DNA of 64,000 bases from Pirellulales bacterium (GCA_044376405.1 JBILKZ010000001.1:24214-88213), one strand, 5' to 3'; counted from the stretch's first letter, positions 1 to 5,333 are shown. Translations and numbers: made by a program. Notes: generated by a model not told the origin, from the letters alone.

Positions 1-1
1 C

Positions 2-202
2 GGCTTTTTTCTGTGCCTTGGAATCGGATGCCTTGTCGCCCAGTCCGTGCAAGTCTTCACCGTTGTTGGAGCGGCTTGGTGTGCGGCCGCTTTTGCCCGC
101 ATGATGTCTTATGCCGTTGATAGCAGCCGGACCGCGCATAATCTGGCCGGAGTGGGAGTCGAAGCAGGCATAGGCCTAGCAATGTTGGCAACGCTGCTCT
201 AA
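2..202 (+). CDS. partial CDS (C-terminal 66 aa), hydrophobic hypothetical protein, putative cassette ORF
   Basis: Frame open from the window edge (GFFLCLGIGCLVAQSVQVFTVVGAAW...GIGLAMLATLL*). The TAA stop at 200-202 lies inside attC-like site 1, as with the following cassette ORFs. Confidence 0.3.
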   Translation, partial: GFFLCLGIGCLVAQSVQVFTVVGAAWCAAAFARMMSYAVDSSRTAHNLAGVGVEAGIGLAMLATLL

Positions 203-284
203 CCACGCAATGCAGCGGACTCGCGATATAATCCGGCGGCGTGGTCCGCGTAAGGTCGCGAGCCGCTGATTGCTACCGTTCGGC
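197..284 (+). repeat. attC-like recombination site 1
   Basis: AAC 201-203 ... GTT 278-280. Arms are GCAAT-G-CAGCGG-A-CTCGCGA (207-226) and TCGCGAG-CCGCTG-ATTGC (256-273). The unpaired G and A are on the left arm. Confidence 0.55.
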
Positions 285-310
285 CCACCTGCTCTTTTGA
301 GTGTGCAATC

Positions 311-871
311 ATGATTTCCGAGGTTTCCGCGCGGGATCTTGGGAAGCTCCTGCCGTTGTGGAAGCAATATGCCGAGGCCCATGCCGTATATGACGACGCG
401 TTTCTTTTGCAGCAGGCGAGCGACGAGGCGATTCTTCAGTACCTAAGCGATGCTTGGATGGCTCCCGGTCATCATGTTTTTATCTGCAGCGAAGTGAATC
501 AGGTTGTCGGCTTTGTTCACTTTGCAACGGCCGATTTCCCGTTCCCACATAGGTCACTTCGACACGGCTTTATCGACGCGCTTTATGTTCATCCGTCGCG
601 ACGACTGCGGGGCATCGGTTCGATGCTCTTCAAGCATGTGAACGACTGGCTCGCAGAAAGATCGATCCACCGGATTCAGTTGTGTGTTGCGGCCGGTAAT
701 GCAGAGGCTTATCTGTTCTGGAAAAAGTTCGGCTTCGATGAACTCGTTATCACTATGAAGCAATCCGGCAAGGCACAAACAGAACAGAACAAAAGCGGAG
801 CCGAATGTGCCGTGGGACGTGAGGTGGCGAAGCCGAGTGCCGAACCAAGCGATGCAGCGGACTCGCGATAA
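311..871 (+). CDS. GNAT family N-acetyltransferase (cassette ORF)
   Basis: 186 aa. The GNAT motif A region is HGFIDALYVHPSRRLRGIGSMLF and the C-terminal part is NAEAYLFWKKFGFDE. The TAA stop at 869-871 lies inside attC-like site 2. Confidence 0.85.
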   Translation: MISEVSARDLGKLLPLWKQYAEAHAVYDDAFLLQQASDEAILQYLSDAWMAPGHHVFICSEVNQVVGFVHFATADFPFPHRSLRHGFIDALYVHPSRRLRGIGSMLFKHVNDWLAERSIHRIQLCVAAGNAEAYLFWKKFGFDELVITMKQSGKAQTEQNKSGAECAVGREVAKPSAEPSDAADSR

Positions 872-926
872 AATCGGTCCTGATGGAAAGTCCAAGGTCG
901 CGAGCCGCTGATCGCCACCGTTCTAG
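839..926 (+). repeat. attC-like recombination site 2
   Basis: AAC 843-845 ... GTT 920-922. Arms are GCGAT-G-CAGCGG-A-CTCGCGA (849-868) and TCGCGAG-CCGCTG-ATCGC (898-915). The architecture matches site 1, with GCAAT/ATTGC replaced by GCGAT/ATCGC. Confidence 0.55.
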
Positions 927-954
927 CGAACCATTGACCGTCCTCGGGTGATTG

Positions 955-1440
955 ATGAATCCAACCGTATACCTCGAAACAACGATCATCGGCTACCTCG
1001 CGATGCAGCCCAGCGGCGTCCTACGGATTGCTGCCAACCAGCAGACCACGCACGAGTGGTGGACGGGGCATCGCCATCGTTTTTCCGTATACGTCTCGCG
1101 ATTCGTGGTCGGCGAATGCGCGGCGGGTGATTCGGTCGCCGCGGCTGATCGCCTGCGTGTATTGGCCGAAGTGCCGCTATTGGAGGTCACGACGGATGCG
1201 GAATCACTTGCCGCGGCGTTGCTTGAAGAGGTGCCGCTGCCCCCAAAGGCAGCCACCGACGCCCTGCATATCGCGGTCGCGGCCGTCAACGGTGTCGAAT
1301 ATCTCCTGACCTGGAACTGCAGGCATATCGCCAACCCTGCCCTCAGGCCGCGAATCGAATCGGTTTGTCGTAGAATGGGGTTTGAGCCCCCTGTCATTTG
1401 CACCCCGCAGGAACTTCTGGAGATCGACGATGGAAACTGA
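955..1440 (+). CDS. PIN-like (VapC-type) toxin-like protein
   Basis: ATG at 955 (the track ORF begins at TTG 952). N-terminal VYLETTIIGYL and C-terminal DALHIAVAAVNGVEYLLTWNCRHIAN resemble a PIN nuclease fold. The gene overlaps its small downstream partner. Confidence 0.55.
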   Translation: MNPTVYLETTIIGYLAMQPSGVLRIAANQQTTHEWWTGHRHRFSVYVSRFVVGECAAGDSVAAADRLRVLAEVPLLEVTTDAESLAAALLEEVPLPPKAATDALHIAVAAVNGVEYLLTWNCRHIANPALRPRIESVCRRMGFEPPVICTPQELLEIDDGN

Positions 1441-1609
1441 TCCGGTCGTTGCCGAAGTGCGAGCGGTTCGCGAGCAGCTGGCTGCCCGTCTCGGGTTCCG
1501 GCTCCACGACATCGTCAAAGAAGCACAGCGGCAAGATGCTGCTGGCGACAGAAAAGTTGTCCGTCTCCCACCACGACGCCCAATCGCCGCGGCCGTAAAC
1601 TCGAAGTAG
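1430..1609 (+). CDS. small partner protein of the PIN-like gene (putative antitoxin)
   Basis: 59 aa (METDPVVAEVRAVREQLAARLGFRLHDIVKEAQRQ...). The ATG at 1430 overlaps the upstream stop (ATGGAAACTGA). The stop at 1607-1609 lies just before attC-like site 3. Confidence 0.45.
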   Translation: METDPVVAEVRAVREQLAARLGFRLHDIVKEAQRQDAAGDRKVVRLPPRRPIAAAVNSK

Positions 1610-1610
1610 C

Positions 1611-1690
1611 CAGAACCAGGCGCTGGATCAGACGGCGGATCAAGTCCAAAGGTAGGGCAGAATCGATGGTCTGCCGCTGATAGCCCCCGG
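1611..1690 (+). repeat. degenerate attC-like site 3
   Basis: GAAC at 1613-1616. Hairpin ATCAG-A-CGGCGGA (1627-1639) / TCTGCCG-CTGAT (1670-1681) has one bulged A. The loop shares AAGTCCAA(A)GGT with site 2. GGG occupies the position where the GTT core is expected. Confidence 0.35.
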
Positions 1691-2079
1691 GACTGTGCAC
1701 CCACAACCATCAACCAACCCTTCTGCATCACAACCAAACGGAAGATGTTGGATCTGTAGACCTGCGGTATAGGCCACGGCATCTGTGGCACGAAACATCC
1801 GAGGTGCACGACGGCATCGGACTGAGCGAGACTACCTCTTTCGCTATGGCCTCACCTCATCTCTGAGGGCTGCGGCCTGATCGACCTCCTGACTCGCTGG
1901 GGGATACTGGTTGGCAGCCAGAGCCTGTGGTGGATGTATTGGTCCCCGTCATCACACATGGCCAAACGTCGAAAGTGATCCAACCCTTCTACATCTCTAG
2001 TACACCTGGCACGGGAAAAAGCAAGATTTTTTTCATTCTGGTGTATCTCCTATTGCAGACCACATAGGAGATCCCAGCA

Positions 2080-2376
2080 ATGAAACCCACATATCAGCAC
2101 AAGAGCATTGGCCAATATCTTCAGCTCACCTACAGCCAGGTGAGAAACTGGCCATTCCATTCTGCGGAGCACCTGGCAGGTGAGTTGTGCAGCAGAGATG
2201 TGGCCCTGGTTGCTGGCCAATTCCTGGTGATCGGTATGGATCAGGATGGCATCCACTGCGGTGCCATCGACGGCCTGGCTGGGCTGGCCGATTTTCCGGC
2301 TGATTCCATGGTCATTTCATACGCAGAACTAGAAAGGGCTTTCTATGAGCAGCACCAAGAGTGGATTGAACGCTAA
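2080..2376 (+). CDS. hypothetical protein (first gene of low-GC three-gene module)
   Basis: 98-aa ORF in a roughly 50% GC block. It overlaps the next ORF by 32 nt and is preceded by a 9-bp inverted repeat at 2045-2072. Confidence 0.5.
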   Translation: MKPTYQHKSIGQYLQLTYSQVRNWPFHSAEHLAGELCSRDVALVAGQFLVIGMDQDGIHCGAIDGLAGLADFPADSMVISYAELERAFYEQHQEWIER

Positions 2377-2638
2377 TTTCTTCAACAAGAGCCAACTGAT
2401 CCGCGAAGTGTCTGGGGCGATGCCCGGAATGACAAATAAGCAAGTCAAGCAAATCATTCAGGAGCGTTTTGGAATCGAGGTCAAAAGCAACCTACTCATA
2501 GCTGTGCGGGGAAAAGAACGAACGCATAAGCTACTCGCTCCTGTAAGAGAAAAGCTGATTAGGCTTGGGCAGGAGTGGTTCGATCTGTGTTGCAAGGACA
2601 GAGGCTACTGCTCCGAATTGCTTCATCGATTCAAATGA
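2345..2638 (+). CDS. hypothetical small basic protein
   Basis: 97 aa, Lys/Arg-rich (NKSQLIREVSGAMPGMTNKQVKQIIQERFGIEV...). Its stop overlaps the next start (ATGA at 2635-2638). Confidence 0.5.
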   Translation: MSSTKSGLNANFFNKSQLIREVSGAMPGMTNKQVKQIIQERFGIEVKSNLLIAVRGKERTHKLLAPVREKLIRLGQEWFDLCCKDRGYCSELLHRFK

Positions 2639-3360
2639 AGAGCATCGGCGTGAATCAGTGGGCGGGTGCTGATACTTGGCTAGTAGAGGCGGCACATGAC
2701 CTCCAGCGAGTAGCTGATCAAGCACGACGACGTGCACAGGATCGTTGGAAACGCTTGGTACCCAGTGACAAGTTTTTCGAGCTGGCTCGGCAGAGATTTC
2801 GCATTCCGCAGCTATTTGGCGTGGCACCGGTCAGGTGGTACTACCAGATTGGTGATTGGACGCTGGCAGAGATCAGGCCAACCGCACTGCACGACGCCAA
2901 AGACTCAGCCACTTTTCTGGTGCACCTCCAGAGTCTGTATGTGGTCGATTCCATGCGTGGCCACGGGGAGGGCAAACGCGCACTGGCAGCAATCAAGCAA
3001 TTGGCCGAGGAGTGCAGCTGTGCGGTGACGCTGTTCGCCAAGTCATTCGCGTTCAGCAAAAACGACGACCTGCCCAACGCGGTGGAGACTTTTGACGAAC
3101 TTGTCCACGCATCGCTGGAGGAAATGTGGCCAGTTGTCTACCAGCCAGAGTGGGATATTGAGTGTCTGCGGTTCTTCTACGAAAGCTGCGGACTCACCAA
3201 CATCTGCTTGTACGGGCCATGGGTCTACCAAAGGCCCAAGGAAGAGGATCTACCATTCGACAGACACTTCATCTACCTGCCACAAAGCATGGATGCTGGG
3301 CACCGCAGCCAACTGGCTAATCGGTTGAATCCCGGCATGTGCAAATACTGCAACAGATAG
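2635..3360 (+). CDS. hypothetical protein with GNAT-like motif A
   Basis: ATG at 2635 is coupled to the upstream stop; 241 aa. The segment FLVHLQSLYVVDSMRGHGEGKRALAAIKQLAEE resembles the acetyl-CoA-binding beta4-alpha3 motif (R-x-x-G-x-G) of GNAT enzymes. The C-terminus is CKYCNR. Confidence 0.55.
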   Translation: MKSIGVNQWAGADTWLVEAAHDLQRVADQARRRAQDRWKRLVPSDKFFELARQRFRIPQLFGVAPVRWYYQIGDWTLAEIRPTALHDAKDSATFLVHLQSLYVVDSMRGHGEGKRALAAIKQLAEECSCAVTLFAKSFAFSKNDDLPNAVETFDELVHASLEEMWPVVYQPEWDIECLRFFYESCGLTNICLYGPWVYQRPKEEDLPFDRHFIYLPQSMDAGHRSQLANRLNPGMCKYCNR

Positions 3361-3565
3361 CTCGGGCTTATTGCGAGGCGGCCAGCCCGAATGATGTGTG
3401 GAGTGGCCGCAGGGCGAGGCCCACAGCCCATTTTTAAAATCCGAACGGATTCAGATCCACATTCATAAACTGAATTGAATTTGGAGTTGAGCCATCTGGT
3501 GGGTTCTGGCCTCCTTCTTCTGGACCACCGCCCGCCCGGTGGTGGGGTGCAGCGGGCCGCTGGCA

Positions 3566-3620
3566 AATGAAAAAACCATCCCTGAACGGCAGGACTCCGG
3601 AGCGTTCAGGGACTCTTTTC
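3566..3620. terminator. bidirectional intrinsic terminator-like hairpin
   Basis: 9-bp stem CCCTGAACG (3580-3588) / CGTTCAGGG (3603-3611), flanked by an A-run (3570-3575) and CTCTTTTC (3613-3620). Confidence 0.45.
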
Positions 3621-3690
3621 GAGACTCCTCATCCCGCGTCAGGACTCATTGTTGGTCGTCAGAGGGACTCATCTGAAGAGTCCAGACAAG

Positions 3691-3723
3691 CAAAAAGCCC
3701 CGGAAACACTTGGTTGCCGAGGC
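3691..3723 (-). terminator. intrinsic terminator downstream of tRNA-Val
   Basis: On the minus strand, the GCCTCGG...CCGGGGC hairpin (3697-3723) is followed by TTTTT (3692-3696). It lies 18 nt after the tRNA 3' end. Confidence 0.5.
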
Positions 3724-3740
3724 TTCGTGCGGAAGGGGAG

Positions 3741-3814
3741 TGGGCGATATAGGACTCGAACCTATGACCCCTAGCTTGTCGAGCTAGTGCTCTAACCAAC
3801 TGAGCTAATCGCCC
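3741..3814 (-). tRNA. tRNA-Val (anticodon GAC)
   Basis: Hand-folded cloverleaf: GGGCGAT-TA-GCTC-AGTTGGTTA-GAGC-A-CTAGC-TCGACAA-GCTAG-GGGTC-ATAGG-TTCGAGT-CCTAT-ATCGCCC-A. The 5' half resembles bacterial tRNA-Val. No CCA is encoded. Loop position 33 is C rather than U. Confidence 0.85.
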
Positions 3815-3896
3815 GCGAAATCACCACCACAGTGTTGCGCCCGATCGGCTGCCAGTCAAGCGAACGCATTGCCGCCCCTGACCGGGCGGCAGCCAG

Positions 3897-5333
3897 TCAT
3901 GCCAGCCAGTCGGTGATCACGCGGCCGTGCACGTCGGTGAGCCGGAAATCACGGCCGCTATGGCGGTAGGTGAGCTTCGTGTGGTCGAGGCCGAGCAGGT
4001 GAAGCATCGTCGCCTGCAGGTCGTGCACGTGCACTGGCTTCTCAACCGCTTTGAATCCAAGCTCGTCGGTGGCCCCATACACCGTGCCCGCCTTCACGCC
4101 GCCGCCGGCCATCCAGACAGTAAAACCGTGGTGGTTGTGGTCGCGGCCCGAGGGCTCCTTGACGCCCTGTTCGTTTGCCAGCTCAACAGTCGGCGTTCTG
4201 CCGAACTCGCCGCCCCACAGTACCAAGGTTGTGTCGAGCAGCCCGAGGCCGACGAGATCGTCGAGCAGGGCACCGATCGCCCGGTCGCATTCGCGTGCGA
4301 GCCTGCGATGGTTCTTCTCGATGTGTTCGTGGCTGTCCCACGGCTGGCCCTGGCCGTGCCAGAGCTGGACATACCGCACGCCCCGTTCGACGAGCCGCCG
4401 GGCGATGAGCATCTGCCGACCTTGCACGTCGTCGCCATAGCGGTCGCGGACATGCTTTGGCTCGCACGACACGTCAAAGGCCTCAGTCGCTTCCGACTGC
4501 ATCCTCCAGGCGAGTTCCATCGAGGCCAGCCGCGCCTCCAGCTGAGGATCATGTTGCCGCGCTTCGAGGTGGCGCCTGTCGAGGGCCGCTGTGAGGTCGA
4601 GCTGCCGCCGCTGCGTATCGCGGTCGAGCACGGGATGCCGCACATACTCGATGAGGTCCTCGACGAGGGTCTTCTTTGTGTCGATGTAGGTGCCCTGGAA
4701 AGCCCCCGGCAGGAAGGCACTCCGCCAGTTCTCCGTCTCCTTGATCGGATAGCCGCCGGGGCACATCGCCACGAAGCCGGGGAGATTTTGGTTCTCCGTG
4801 CCGAGGCCATAGGTCACCCACGCGCCGGCCGAAGGCCGGACCAGCCGCGCGTCGCCGCAGTTCATCAGCATCAGCGACGGCTCGTGATTTGGAACGTCGG
4901 CATGCATCGACCGCACGACGAGCAGCCGGTCGGCGTGGCGGGCCACGTGGGGAAAGAGGTCGCTCACCTCGAGGCCGCTCTCGCCGTGGCGGCTGAAAGC
5001 GAAGGGCGAAGGCAGGGCGGCCCCTGTCCGCCGCTCGGTGGCCAGCTTGTTGGGAATCTCCCGGCCGGCGTACTGCTCGAGCGCCACCTTGCGGTCGAAC
5101 GTGTCGAGATGGCTCGGGCCGCCGTTGGCGAAGATGTGGATCACGGCCCGGGCGCGGGCCGGGAAATGAGGAGGCCGCGGCGCCATCGACGTGGCCACCA
5201 CGGAGCCGGCCGACGCCGACTCCTGTTGCATGAGGGTCGCCGCCCCCAGCCAGCCGAGGCCCATGCCGGTGCGGGCGAGGGCCTCGCGACGGGTGAGTGG
5301 CAGTGGGTGGTGATTCGCGTGGGTCATATGCAT
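3897..5333 (-). CDS. DUF1501 domain-containing protein (sulfatase-like, Tat signal)
   Basis: 478 aa. Twin-arginine signal LTRREALARTGMGLGWLGAA. C-terminal WGGEFGRTP...GRDHN motif. Lies downstream of a PSCyt/DUF1553 gene, the canonical planctomycete pair. Confidence 0.85.
   Translation of the reverse strand: MHMTHANHHPLPLTRREALARTGMGLGWLGAATLMQQESASAGSVVATSMAPRPPHFPARARAVIHIFANGGPSHLDTFDRKVALEQYAGREIPNKLATERRTGAALPSPFAFSRHGESGLEVSDLFPHVARHADRLLVVRSMHADVPNHEPSLMLMNCGDARLVRPSAGAWVTYGLGTENQNLPGFVAMCPGGYPIKETENWRSAFLPGAFQGTYIDTKKTLVEDLIEYVRHPVLDRDTQRRQLDLTAALDRRHLEARQHDPQLEARLASMELAWRMQSEATEAFDVSCEPKHVRDRYGDDVQGRQMLIARRLVERGVRYVQLWHGQGQPWDSHEHIEKNHRRLARECDRAIGALLDDLVGLGLLDTTLVLWGGEFGRTPTVELANEQGVKEPSGRDHNHHGFTVWMAGGGVKAGTVYGATDELGFKAVEKPVHVHDLQATMLHLLGLDHTKLTYRHSGRDFRLTDVHGRVITDWLA

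Follow-up and report, generated by a model that had tools for sequence, protein, structure and literature searches.

Evidence for the distal end of an array of integron-type gene cassettes, and for its probable carriage by a tRNA-Val island, in a freshwater Pirellulales-like planctomycete

The 64,000-nt stretch of Pirellulales bacterium DNA analyzed here (GCA_044376405.1 JBILKZ010000001.1:24214-88213; hereafter the window, with positions counted from its first letter) opens with three short, same-strand coding units, each of them followed by an imperfect palindrome. This raises the question of whether these units are integron gene cassettes with their attC recombination sites and, if so, which integrase would act on them, given that no homologue of an integron integrase (IntI) is encoded in the 64-kb window, including the 62 kb downstream of the units. 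A preliminary description, prepared from the sequence alone, had read them as the tail of a cassette array whose intI gene would lie upstream of position 1. Our analysis indicates that positions 1–1695 are very probably the distal end of an array of integron-type gene cassettes in a freshwater Pirellulales-like planctomycete. As to the integrase, we favor, with some reserve, an array which does not lie beside an intI gene of its own, but is placed on a tRNA-Val island with a phage-type integrase and an excisionase, keeps a putative attI site, and has its cassettes turned over by an IntI supplied from elsewhere.

Architecture of the three sites and their family in Planctomycetota

Two of the three sites share the same layout, in agreement with the preliminary description. 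The first, attC-1 (197–284, plus strand), runs from the R'' box CTCTAAC (197–203) to the R' box GTTCGGC (278–284), and the second, attC-2 (839–926, plus strand), from R'' GCCGAAC (839–845) to R' GTTCTAG (920–926); both are 88-nt imperfect palindromes with 80 nt from AAC to GTT. The order of elements in attC-1 is CTCTAAC-CAC-GCAAT-G-CAGCGG-A-CTCGCGA, a 29-nt loop, and TCGCGAG-CCGCTG-ATTGC-TACC-GTTCGGC, while in attC-2 the pair GCAAT/ATTGC is replaced by GCGAT/ATCGC. A repeat search recovered the two as a single 81-nt repeat family (79% identity, 642 nt from start to start), in which the arms are kept and the mismatches fall mostly in the loop. The 18-mer ATGCAGCGGACTCGCGAT was found in two copies against 0.18 expected, and neither this word nor the arm sequences had a further copy anywhere in the 64-kb window. 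The terminal site, attC-3 (1610–1695, plus strand), can be aligned with the other two and consists of R'' CCAGAAC, a diverged stem and loop, the L' box GCCGCTGATAGC and the crossover G at 1689, after which GGACT is present instead of TT, with GGGACTG at the position of the R' box. The lengths of the three sites are thus 86–88 nt.

When folded with DNA parameters, either strand of attC-1 and of attC-2 formed a long hairpin. None of 200 shuffled sequences folded as well as attC-2 (z = −5.1), and a z of −2.0 was obtained for attC-1. In these folds, two top-strand bases of the ORF (open reading frame)-proximal arm, G at model position 16 and A at position 23, were left unpaired in both copies, as had been noticed previously, with the 6-bp stem CAGCGG/CCGCTG between them; the bottom strand would therefore expose extrahelical C16 and T23. 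The unpaired central spacer measures 3 nt (CAC/CAA) on one side versus 4 nt (TACC/CACC) on the other. A naive scan for AAC...GTT combined with minimum free energy had no discriminating power in such GC-rich DNA, and no Rfam family was matched at the sites in a scan of positions 1–4000, in which a tRNA was the only match.

Next to these structural features, we employed a covariance model, R1, which was built from 35 sites of the same family and six diverged ones, excluding those of the window itself, and was run on the whole window with filters off. Exactly three places were found, namely attC-2 (96.3 bits), attC-1 (88.5 bits, E 2e-23) and attC-3 (28.8 bits, E about 1e-5); beyond these, there was no R1 match with E < 0.06 in the 64-kb window.

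The same kind of site is widespread outside the window. In a species-representative genome collection, the exact-arm pattern occurred in at least 119 stretches, many of them multi-copy, and nearly all belonging to Planctomycetota metagenome-assembled genomes (MAGs) from lakes. A search with nhmmer yielded 351 family sites across genome loci, with a median spacing of 690 bp, and all copies were on one strand in each of the 88 loci with two or more sites. The longest ORF was co-oriented in 172 of 228 inter-site units, with a median of about 5 nt between its stop codon and the attC. Among 170 unique sites, of 87–89 nt, AAC was present in 97% and GTT in 95%. The compensatory change from A:T to G:C, which had been reported for one L-box pair of attC-1 and attC-2, is real and recurs within this set (G:C in 86 sites, A:T in 44, G:T in 13 and an A:C mismatch in 25). 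Over the family alignment, 16 stem pairs vary on both sides, and 91.5% of cells are paired versus 26–42% in slid controls, a value reached by none of 500 shuffles. With regard to the outer four bases, the RYYY/RRRY consensus is matched only in part by CTCTAAC/GTTCGGC and GCCGAAC/GTTCTAG. The family is very homogeneous and restricted to one phylum, and its proximal extrahelical base is C where G would be usual.

Genuine IntI genes adjoin many arrays of this family. In what follows, contigs and loci compared with the window are designated by L and a number; those informative about the upstream side (L135, L001 and L006) are metagenome contigs. In L005, the GNAT gene also present in the window is the first cassette beside a divergently transcribed 444-aa integrase, which scored 391 bits on TIGR02249 (cutoff 265), and five further IntI genes tested gave 408–475 bits. 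Integrases passing this model (391–475 bits) adjoin the arrays of L005, L080, L106, L045, L095 and L083. In total, IntI homologues were observed in about 20 loci, followed by arrays of 8–10 sites, and the layout of a complete integron was recognized within the family in L106, L061, L045 and L080.

Cassettes, their borders and their exchange

The three units of the window are promoterless, and encode a DUF4345 protein, a GNAT acetyltransferase and a PIN-like protein with a 59-aa partner, respectively. Cassette A (1–278, plus strand) is cut by the window start and comprises the 3' part of the DUF4345 membrane-protein gene, whose TAA (200–202) lies within R'' of attC-1, and the attC up to the crossover G at 278; its complete product (126 aa, read from L004) matched PF14248 DUF4345 with 34.9 bits. 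Cassette B (279–920, plus strand, 642 bp) extends from TTCGGCC to its crossover G and carries the GNAT ORF (311–871; Pfam Acetyltransf_1, 65.4 bits), which runs 30 nt into attC-2, with its last eight codons inside the site and its stop at 869–871. Cassette C (921–1689, plus strand, 769 bp) harbors the PIN-like ORF (955–1440, 161 aa) and an overlapping 59-aa ORF (1430–1609), whose TAG (1607–1609) directly precedes attC-3. All three sites hence begin at or overlap the stop codon of a short same-strand ORF, as previously described. Of the products proposed earlier, the GNAT and the hydrophobic fragment, now assigned to DUF4345, were corroborated. The third, a PIN-type toxin-antitoxin pair, is a putative one: the PIN assignment comes from a sub-threshold Pfam match (22.4 versus 23.6 bits), no match to this ORF was obtained in NCBIfam, PADLOC, PHROGs or PDB sequences, and the 161-aa and 59-aa ORFs are considered a candidate toxin-antitoxin pair. 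As no resistance genes were identified, direct clinical relevance is lacking.

A tail ending in AADSR is common to several unrelated cassette ORFs, whose final codons and stop come from the attC. This is the case for the GNAT of the window (...PSDAADSR, 848–871), for an ORF of L014 (2097–2435, ...QRHAADSR) and for a 229-aa ORF of L087 (5476–6165, ...EPSDAADSR).

Each of the cassettes recurs elsewhere, and does so as a unit. Cassette A is present at 89–99% identity in L090, L095, L063, L077, L028 and L061, with homology stopping at window position 284, and is the first cassette beside IntI in L095 and L063. Its start in L090, L095 and L063 reads G↓TTAGAG (the arrow marking the crossover point), a perfect complement of R'', and the native start of the DUF4345 cassette in other contigs reads G↓TTAGAGCAATGAA. 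In the assembly collection, 121 blocks with differing neighborhoods list an identical GNAT protein. The cassette encoding it starts at G↓TTCGGCC in three left contexts, namely after attC-1 in the window, after the attI of L005 and, in L001, L003 and L135, behind a third sequence, and it ends with CCG↓TT, after which four different downstream cassettes were found. The identical PIN-like protein is listed in 122 blocks, including several unrelated arrays (L127–L131, L134), the DNA of cassette C is 93–97% identical in L069, L014, L012, L034 and L037, and in L001 the PIN cassette starts with G↓TTCTGG, the perfect complement of attC-3 R''. These cases obey one rule, to which every cassette of L001 also conforms: each R'' is the reverse complement of G plus the first six bases of its own cassette. 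Within the window, R' of attC-1 (GTTCGGC) and R'' of attC-2 (GCCGAAC) are exact reverse complements of each other, a correspondence not remarked on in the preliminary description and the signature expected of a cassette that circularizes through its attC.

In a megablast comparison of the window with all loci, the homology blocks ended at cassette borders (1–284, 278–922 and 839–1689), and the cassette junctions of related contigs diverged exactly at G↓TT. Comparison of array content between sister genomes, which had been recommended for this locus, revealed that arrays at the same chromosomal site vary and break at that point. They are composed of DUF4345, GNAT and PIN in the window and L004; of GNAT and PIN in L135; of a 118-aa product and PIN in L134; of GNAT, a 252-aa product, a 189-aa product and PIN in L001; and of other cassettes in L014. 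Judged by the three-site-only response of the R1 model, the single-strand arrangement in 88 of 88 loci, the adjacency of TIGR02249 integrases and these G↓TT borders, the three sites of the window are attC sites and the three units integron gene cassettes, which bears out the initial identification of a cassette-array tail.

The recombination steps that would underlie this pattern are taken, by analogy, from established integron biology. The bottom strand of each attC would fold into a hairpin once the DNA becomes single-stranded. IntI would bind the R and L boxes, with the strand being chosen via the two extrahelical bases (bottom C16 and T23, 6 bp apart), and would cleave at the bottom-strand AAC, that is, at G↓TT of the top strand. 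Recombination between two attC sites would excise a circular cassette, whereas that between attI and attC would insert one at the head of the array, replication then resolving the junction.

Crossover at G↓TT does not seem to be the only route by which these arrays change. The 5' part of attC-2 matches the GNAT attC of L001 and L005, while from mid-loop on (3' half of the loop, spacer CACC) the site matches the attC which precedes the PIN cassette in L134. By this alignment attC-2 is a hybrid site, and its switch point lies inside the shared 28-nt arm, away from G↓TT, which argues for homologous exchange between near-identical attC arms, and not an IntI crossover, as a further means of reshuffling arrays. 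Arrays of this kind evolve both by crossover at G↓TT and by homologous exchange within attC arms.

The right end of the array was examined through L014, which represents a related species and has the right flank in common with the window at about 86% identity. In L014, the PIN cassette ends with ...GATAGCCCCCG↓TTCGGAGG and one more cassette follows, whereas the window, L001 and L004 read ...GATAGCCCCCG↓GGACTGTGCACCC at the end of this cassette. It follows that attC-3 has been preserved as far as the crossover G (1689) and that the replacement affects only the bases beyond it. The last attC of L014 is broken mid-loop and is then followed by the same flank, GTGCACCCACAACC. On the basis of these junctions, attC-3 is the true end of the array, after which the array is joined to the backbone of the putative island. 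The preliminary description was right in suspecting that the third site marks the array end and in noting GGG at the GTT core, but not in regarding the site as generally degenerate. With TT and the rest of R' missing, the bottom strand lacks the AAC, so that the PIN-like cassette is probably locked in this strain and no longer excisable. The junction may derive from a deletion or from an aberrant IntI event.

The array head, the tRNA-Val island and the putative attI

Since the window starts within cassette A, sister contigs were used to view the head of the array. The closest of them, L135, matches window positions 278–1360 with 100% identity, and the match sets in precisely at the crossover G (278). 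Leftward of this base, L135 contains about 200 bp of non-coding DNA, an 83-aa ORF, a gene for a 384-aa tyrosine recombinase and a 74-aa gene. The same arrangement was observed in L001, L002 and L006, the part from integrase to array in L003, L136, L137 and L138, and a version with a fragmented integrase gene in L037. The 384-aa recombinase had XerA (24.6 bits) as its sole NCBIfam match and no match to TIGR02249, and it matched PHROG 1 (phrog_1), annotated as 'integrase', at 7.5e-24, while its 74-aa neighbor matched excisionase PHROGs. By these profile matches the recombinase is a phage-type integrase and not an IntI. Among the contigs sharing the right flank which could be assembled leftward (L001, L002, L006, L132, L133 and L135), no IntI homologue was present within 7–10 kb left of the array. 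Thus, the preliminary description was correct that the window lacks intI; the gene it expected just upstream of position 1 is probably absent, its place being taken in L135 by the phage-type integrase.

The carrier of this module could be traced by a 21-nt core (AGTGGGCGATATAGGACTCGA on the plus strand), which in the window occupies 3739–3759 and equals the 3' end of a minus-strand tRNA-Val (GAC) gene (3740–3814; ARAGORN; Rfam RF00005, 71.5 bits), and which represents a putative island attachment site. The core is repeated directly at L001 7386–7406, L132 4984 and L006 4437, left of the integrase module and the array. This places the array of those contigs inside a tRNA-Val-integrated island of about 7.8 kb, with the order 167/180-aa ORF, excisionase-like 74-aa gene, 384-aa integrase, 83-aa CxxC ORF, attI-like region, array and three unassigned ORFs. 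Positions 1–3759 of the window would correspond to the right part of such an island, and only the tRNA-proximal copy of the core is visible in it.

Between the 83-aa ORF and the first cassette, the island arrays are headed by an attI-like sequence, ...GTAGAAACACTAG↓TT, with the ending AGAAA[T/C]AC[A/T]AG↓TT, in a region which holds several R-box-like GTTATCC/GTTATCG repeats (L001 9772–9969). It is kept up to ...GTAGAAACACT[A/G]G↓TT in L001, L003, L135 and L037, with two different first cassettes. A region of about 72% identity in L060 (1460–1685) and L087 (5930–6165) ends with ...GTAGAAATACAAG↓TT and is then followed by other cassettes, the gene upstream of it being that of a serine recombinase (Resolvase, 98 bits). 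Overall, the attI-like region is conserved to G↓TT ahead of five different first cassettes.

The same ending was encountered beside genuine integrases. In L106, L045, L022, L083 and L063, and by tblastn only in L061, intI is located upstream of the cassettes and co-oriented with them. The attI beside co-oriented IntI (L022, L083 and L063) ends with AGAAATACAAG↓TT, and that beside divergent IntI (L005 9940–9969, L080 and L096) with AATTAGATTG↓TT; two attI types thus track intI orientation. Where an array lacks intI and stands behind a phage-type integrase or a serine recombinase, its head likewise has the co-oriented type of ending. With respect to the integrases themselves, the IntI of L061 (6871–7935) has an in-frame stop, and an IntI homologue of L070 (18–476) seems to be without residues of about 118–351; both genes adjoin long arrays and look inactivated.

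The difference between the window and L135 amounts to one or more cassettes and falls precisely on G↓TT, which points to recent IntI activity in trans. We regard the window array as probably of the CALIN type (cluster of attC sites lacking integron-integrase), that is, intI-less, but attI-retaining. Identical cassettes are seen beside genuine IntI, beside the intI-less attI-like site on the tRNA-Val island, and mid-array in other genomes. Going beyond this locus, we put forward tentatively, as a possibility that we hold to be short of probable, that in freshwater Planctomycetota intI-less arrays with a functional attI are carried as cargo of site-specific islands, either of the tRNA-Val/tyrosine integrase type or of the serine recombinase type, and are loaded and unloaded in trans by a chromosomal IntI. 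The observation behind this proposal is the strain polymorphism between the window and L135, which falls right on the attI G↓TT, the DNA being identical in other respects. If it were true, such islands would be mobile 'satellite' integron platforms and would offer a route for whole-array transfer unlike that of transposon- or plasmid-borne mobile integrons.

At its left edge, the window is probably bounded by an assembly break. Over 6 kb, L004 matches the window with 100% identity, and it is 181 nt longer on the left; this extension is identical to L007 (reverse strand), in which a DUF4345 paralogue lies beside an SHD1-like gene, and L004 1–195 and L007 diverge at window nt 15. L007 is a 1.5-kb contig, the sole return of a metagenome pattern scan with the 5' end of L004, and it showed no attC by the covariance model and no significant fold. 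The segment shared with L007 is the reason for assuming a break. Being identical to the non-cassette DNA of L007, the L004 extension probably stems from a chimeric join, and a provisional cassette A start, G↓TTGGAG, was dropped.

Another contig, L003 (1–13050), has the integrase, the 83-aa ORF, the attI-like head and the GNAT cassette as in L001, and then continues with six other cassettes and hopanoid-biosynthesis genes, not with the tRNA-Val flank. Either a rearrangement through the array or a chimeric assembly joined at the common GNAT cassette may account for this layout.

To the right of the array, a non-cassette backbone (1695–3738, plus strand) contains ORFs at 2080–2376 (98 aa), 2345–2638 (97 aa) and 2635–3360 (241 aa), which had no matches in Pfam, NCBIfam, PHROG or PADLOC; no attC match was found in this segment. 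From about position 1989 on, it is about 85–86% identical in L014, L001 and L136–138, despite their differing arrays. A 16-nt direct repeat (CCAACCCTTCT[G/A]CATC) is located at 1714–1729 and 1980–1995, and the 266-bp segment between the copies is not conserved across species. The two equivalent places of L014, at about 2468 and 2743, are occupied by another repeat (CTGCCCACCT[G/A]CAT), which indicates that the two copies changed in concert. These paired repeats could be binding or recombination sites. On the other side of the tRNA gene, positions 3897–5333 and beyond contain a DUF1501 and PSCyt1/PSCyt2/PSD1 gene pair. Such a pair is typical of Planctomycetota and agrees with the taxonomic placement of the window.

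Alternative explanations and relation to known integrons

Several points weigh against an island-borne array served by IntI in trans, or against the assignment of its sites. The island, the putative attI and the missing intI are read from the metagenome sister contigs L135, L001 and L006, and not from the upstream DNA of the window itself, and the leftward extension of L004 may be an assembly chimera. That IntI acts in trans is something we infer, the recombination events being read from sequence comparison. An empty tRNA-Val site, which would show mobility of the island, was looked for and not found. The high R1 scores of attC-1 and attC-2 are partly obtained by construction, the model having been built from the same family. 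Regarding the sites, the proximal bottom-strand base is C and not G, the spacer has 3/4 nt and not 5–6, and the R' boxes GTTCGGC and GTTCTAG fit GTTRRRY in part, as the preliminary description had already pointed out.

Among the alternatives, the best surviving one is that the window contains the tail of a complete sedentary chromosomal integron, whose intI and attI would be located a few kb upstream of position 1. The GNAT and DUF4345 cassettes are indeed found directly beside genuine IntI in L005, L095 and L063, many arrays of the same attC family are complete (L106, L061, L045 and L080), and the upstream side falls outside a sequence that starts at position 1. We nevertheless consider this unlikely, because L135, with its identity to window 278–1360, has attI-like DNA, the 83-aa ORF and a non-IntI phage-type integrase upstream, and because IntI homologues were found neither within 7–10 kb in the six leftward-assembled sisters nor in the 64-kb window.

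If the array is indeed borne on the island, the cassettes might instead be moved by the non-IntI recombinase of the island itself, either the 384-aa tyrosine integrase or the serine recombinase of L060/L087. These genes lie immediately upstream of the attI-like site, are co-oriented with it in at least six contigs, and take the place that a co-oriented intI would occupy. The tyrosine integrase, however, has a plausible substrate of its own in the 21-nt tRNA-Val repeat, as well as a partner excisionase, and no TIGR02249 signal; two unrelated recombinase classes stand at the same position, and the attI-like motif is that found beside genuine IntI. This explanation is accordingly very improbable, and the 384-aa protein was rejected as a candidate new integron integrase on account of its own tRNA-Val repeat, its excisionase partner, the lack of TIGR02249 signal and the serine recombinase at the equivalent place in L060/L087.

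The two remaining alternatives concern the hairpins themselves. Closely alike, GC-rich imperfect palindromes after genes could suggest repetitive extragenic palindromic elements or bacterial interspersed mosaic elements (REP/BIME), or other generic palindromes scattered over the genome and unrelated to integrons; this is effectively refuted, as the 64 kb contain no REP-like scatter but three adjacent copies on one strand, multi-copy loci invariably have all copies on one strand, with cassette-like spacing, IntI genes adjoin, and homology blocks break at G↓TT. Stable hairpins at ORF 3' ends might also act as intrinsic terminators or mRNA-stabilizing stem-loops common to neighboring genes, the chance of which is negligible, given that none of the three sites is followed by a T tract or was called in a terminator scan, that 18-bp stems with conserved bulges are set in an AAC/GTT frame, that the GNAT ORF ends within the hairpin, and that this element is found behind hundreds of unrelated genes and is IntI-linked.

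The window array is a well-documented case of cassette turnover in an uncultured freshwater planctomycete lineage, with attC sites recognizable to a reader from the sequence alone. It suggests that an intI-less array can keep its attI while hitch-hiking on another mobile element. Current integron models are not overturned by it; a modest twist is added by the probable lack of an intI next to the array, by the attI having been kept and by the island setting.

In canonical attC sites, the bottom-strand extrahelical bases are found at position 16 (usually G) and at 23/24 (a conserved T), with a 6-bp stem between them, the unpaired central spacer has 5–6 nt, and the total length ranges from 57 to 141 bp (Nivina et al. 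2016, PMC5027507). The sites of the window share the positions, the 6-bp spacing and the distal T, and are within that length range, but differ in the proximal C and in the 3/4-nt spacer. Similarly, they resemble the VCR repeats of the Vibrio cholerae superintegron in the R''...AAC/GTT...R' frame, the two extrahelical bases 6 bp apart, the variable loop and the G↓TT crossover, as well as in their position at the 3' end of promoterless ORFs, the same-strand arrays, the lineage-homogeneous attC and a cargo of GNAT and putative toxin-antitoxin genes. Unlike in sedentary chromosomal integrons such as that of the VCR, the proximal bottom-strand base is C, the spacer has 3/4 nt, the R' consensus is GTTCGGC instead of GTTRRRY, and the host is a planctomycete and not a gammaproteobacterium.

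Planctomycetes were already known to carry integrons (PMC4889954; PMC2426708), and the sequence and structure of their chromosomal attC sites show sufficient conservation for a taxon-specific covariance model (Ghaly et al. 2021, PMC8352920). Going by the published description, the family of the window is like that set in being conserved across many Planctomycetota MAGs, and it differs in coming from freshwater MAGs, mostly deposited later. CALIN elements are defined by having no integron-integrase, and their cassettes are still exchangeable with complete integrons (Cury et al. 2016, PMC4889954). With at least two attC sites (three here), and no intI seen either in the 62 kb downstream or, in sister contigs, within 7–10 kb upstream, the window array is CALIN-like. 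It would be set apart by an attI-like head, with homology to the attI found next to co-oriented IntI, and by a tRNA-integrated island as carrier, the upstream side in both respects being viewed through sister contigs.

Integrons with intI co-oriented with the cassettes form a recognized 'inverted integrase' group (PMC3575428). L106, L045, L022, L083 and L063 have this layout, and the island arrays share the attI ending of the last three; unlike in that group, the position of intI is taken in the island version by the 83-aa ORF together with either a phage-type integrase or a serine recombinase. Boucher and coworkers reportedly included Planctomycetes in the group in 2007.

Genomic islands bearing integrons, such as SGI1, which carries a complete class 1 integron with intI1 and resistance cassettes, provide the remaining comparison. 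Whereas no intI was seen in the putative tRNA-Val island and its cassettes are environmental, it would share with SGI1-type islands the principle of a cassette array being cargo of an island which is integrated site-specifically and encodes an integrase and an excisionase of its own.

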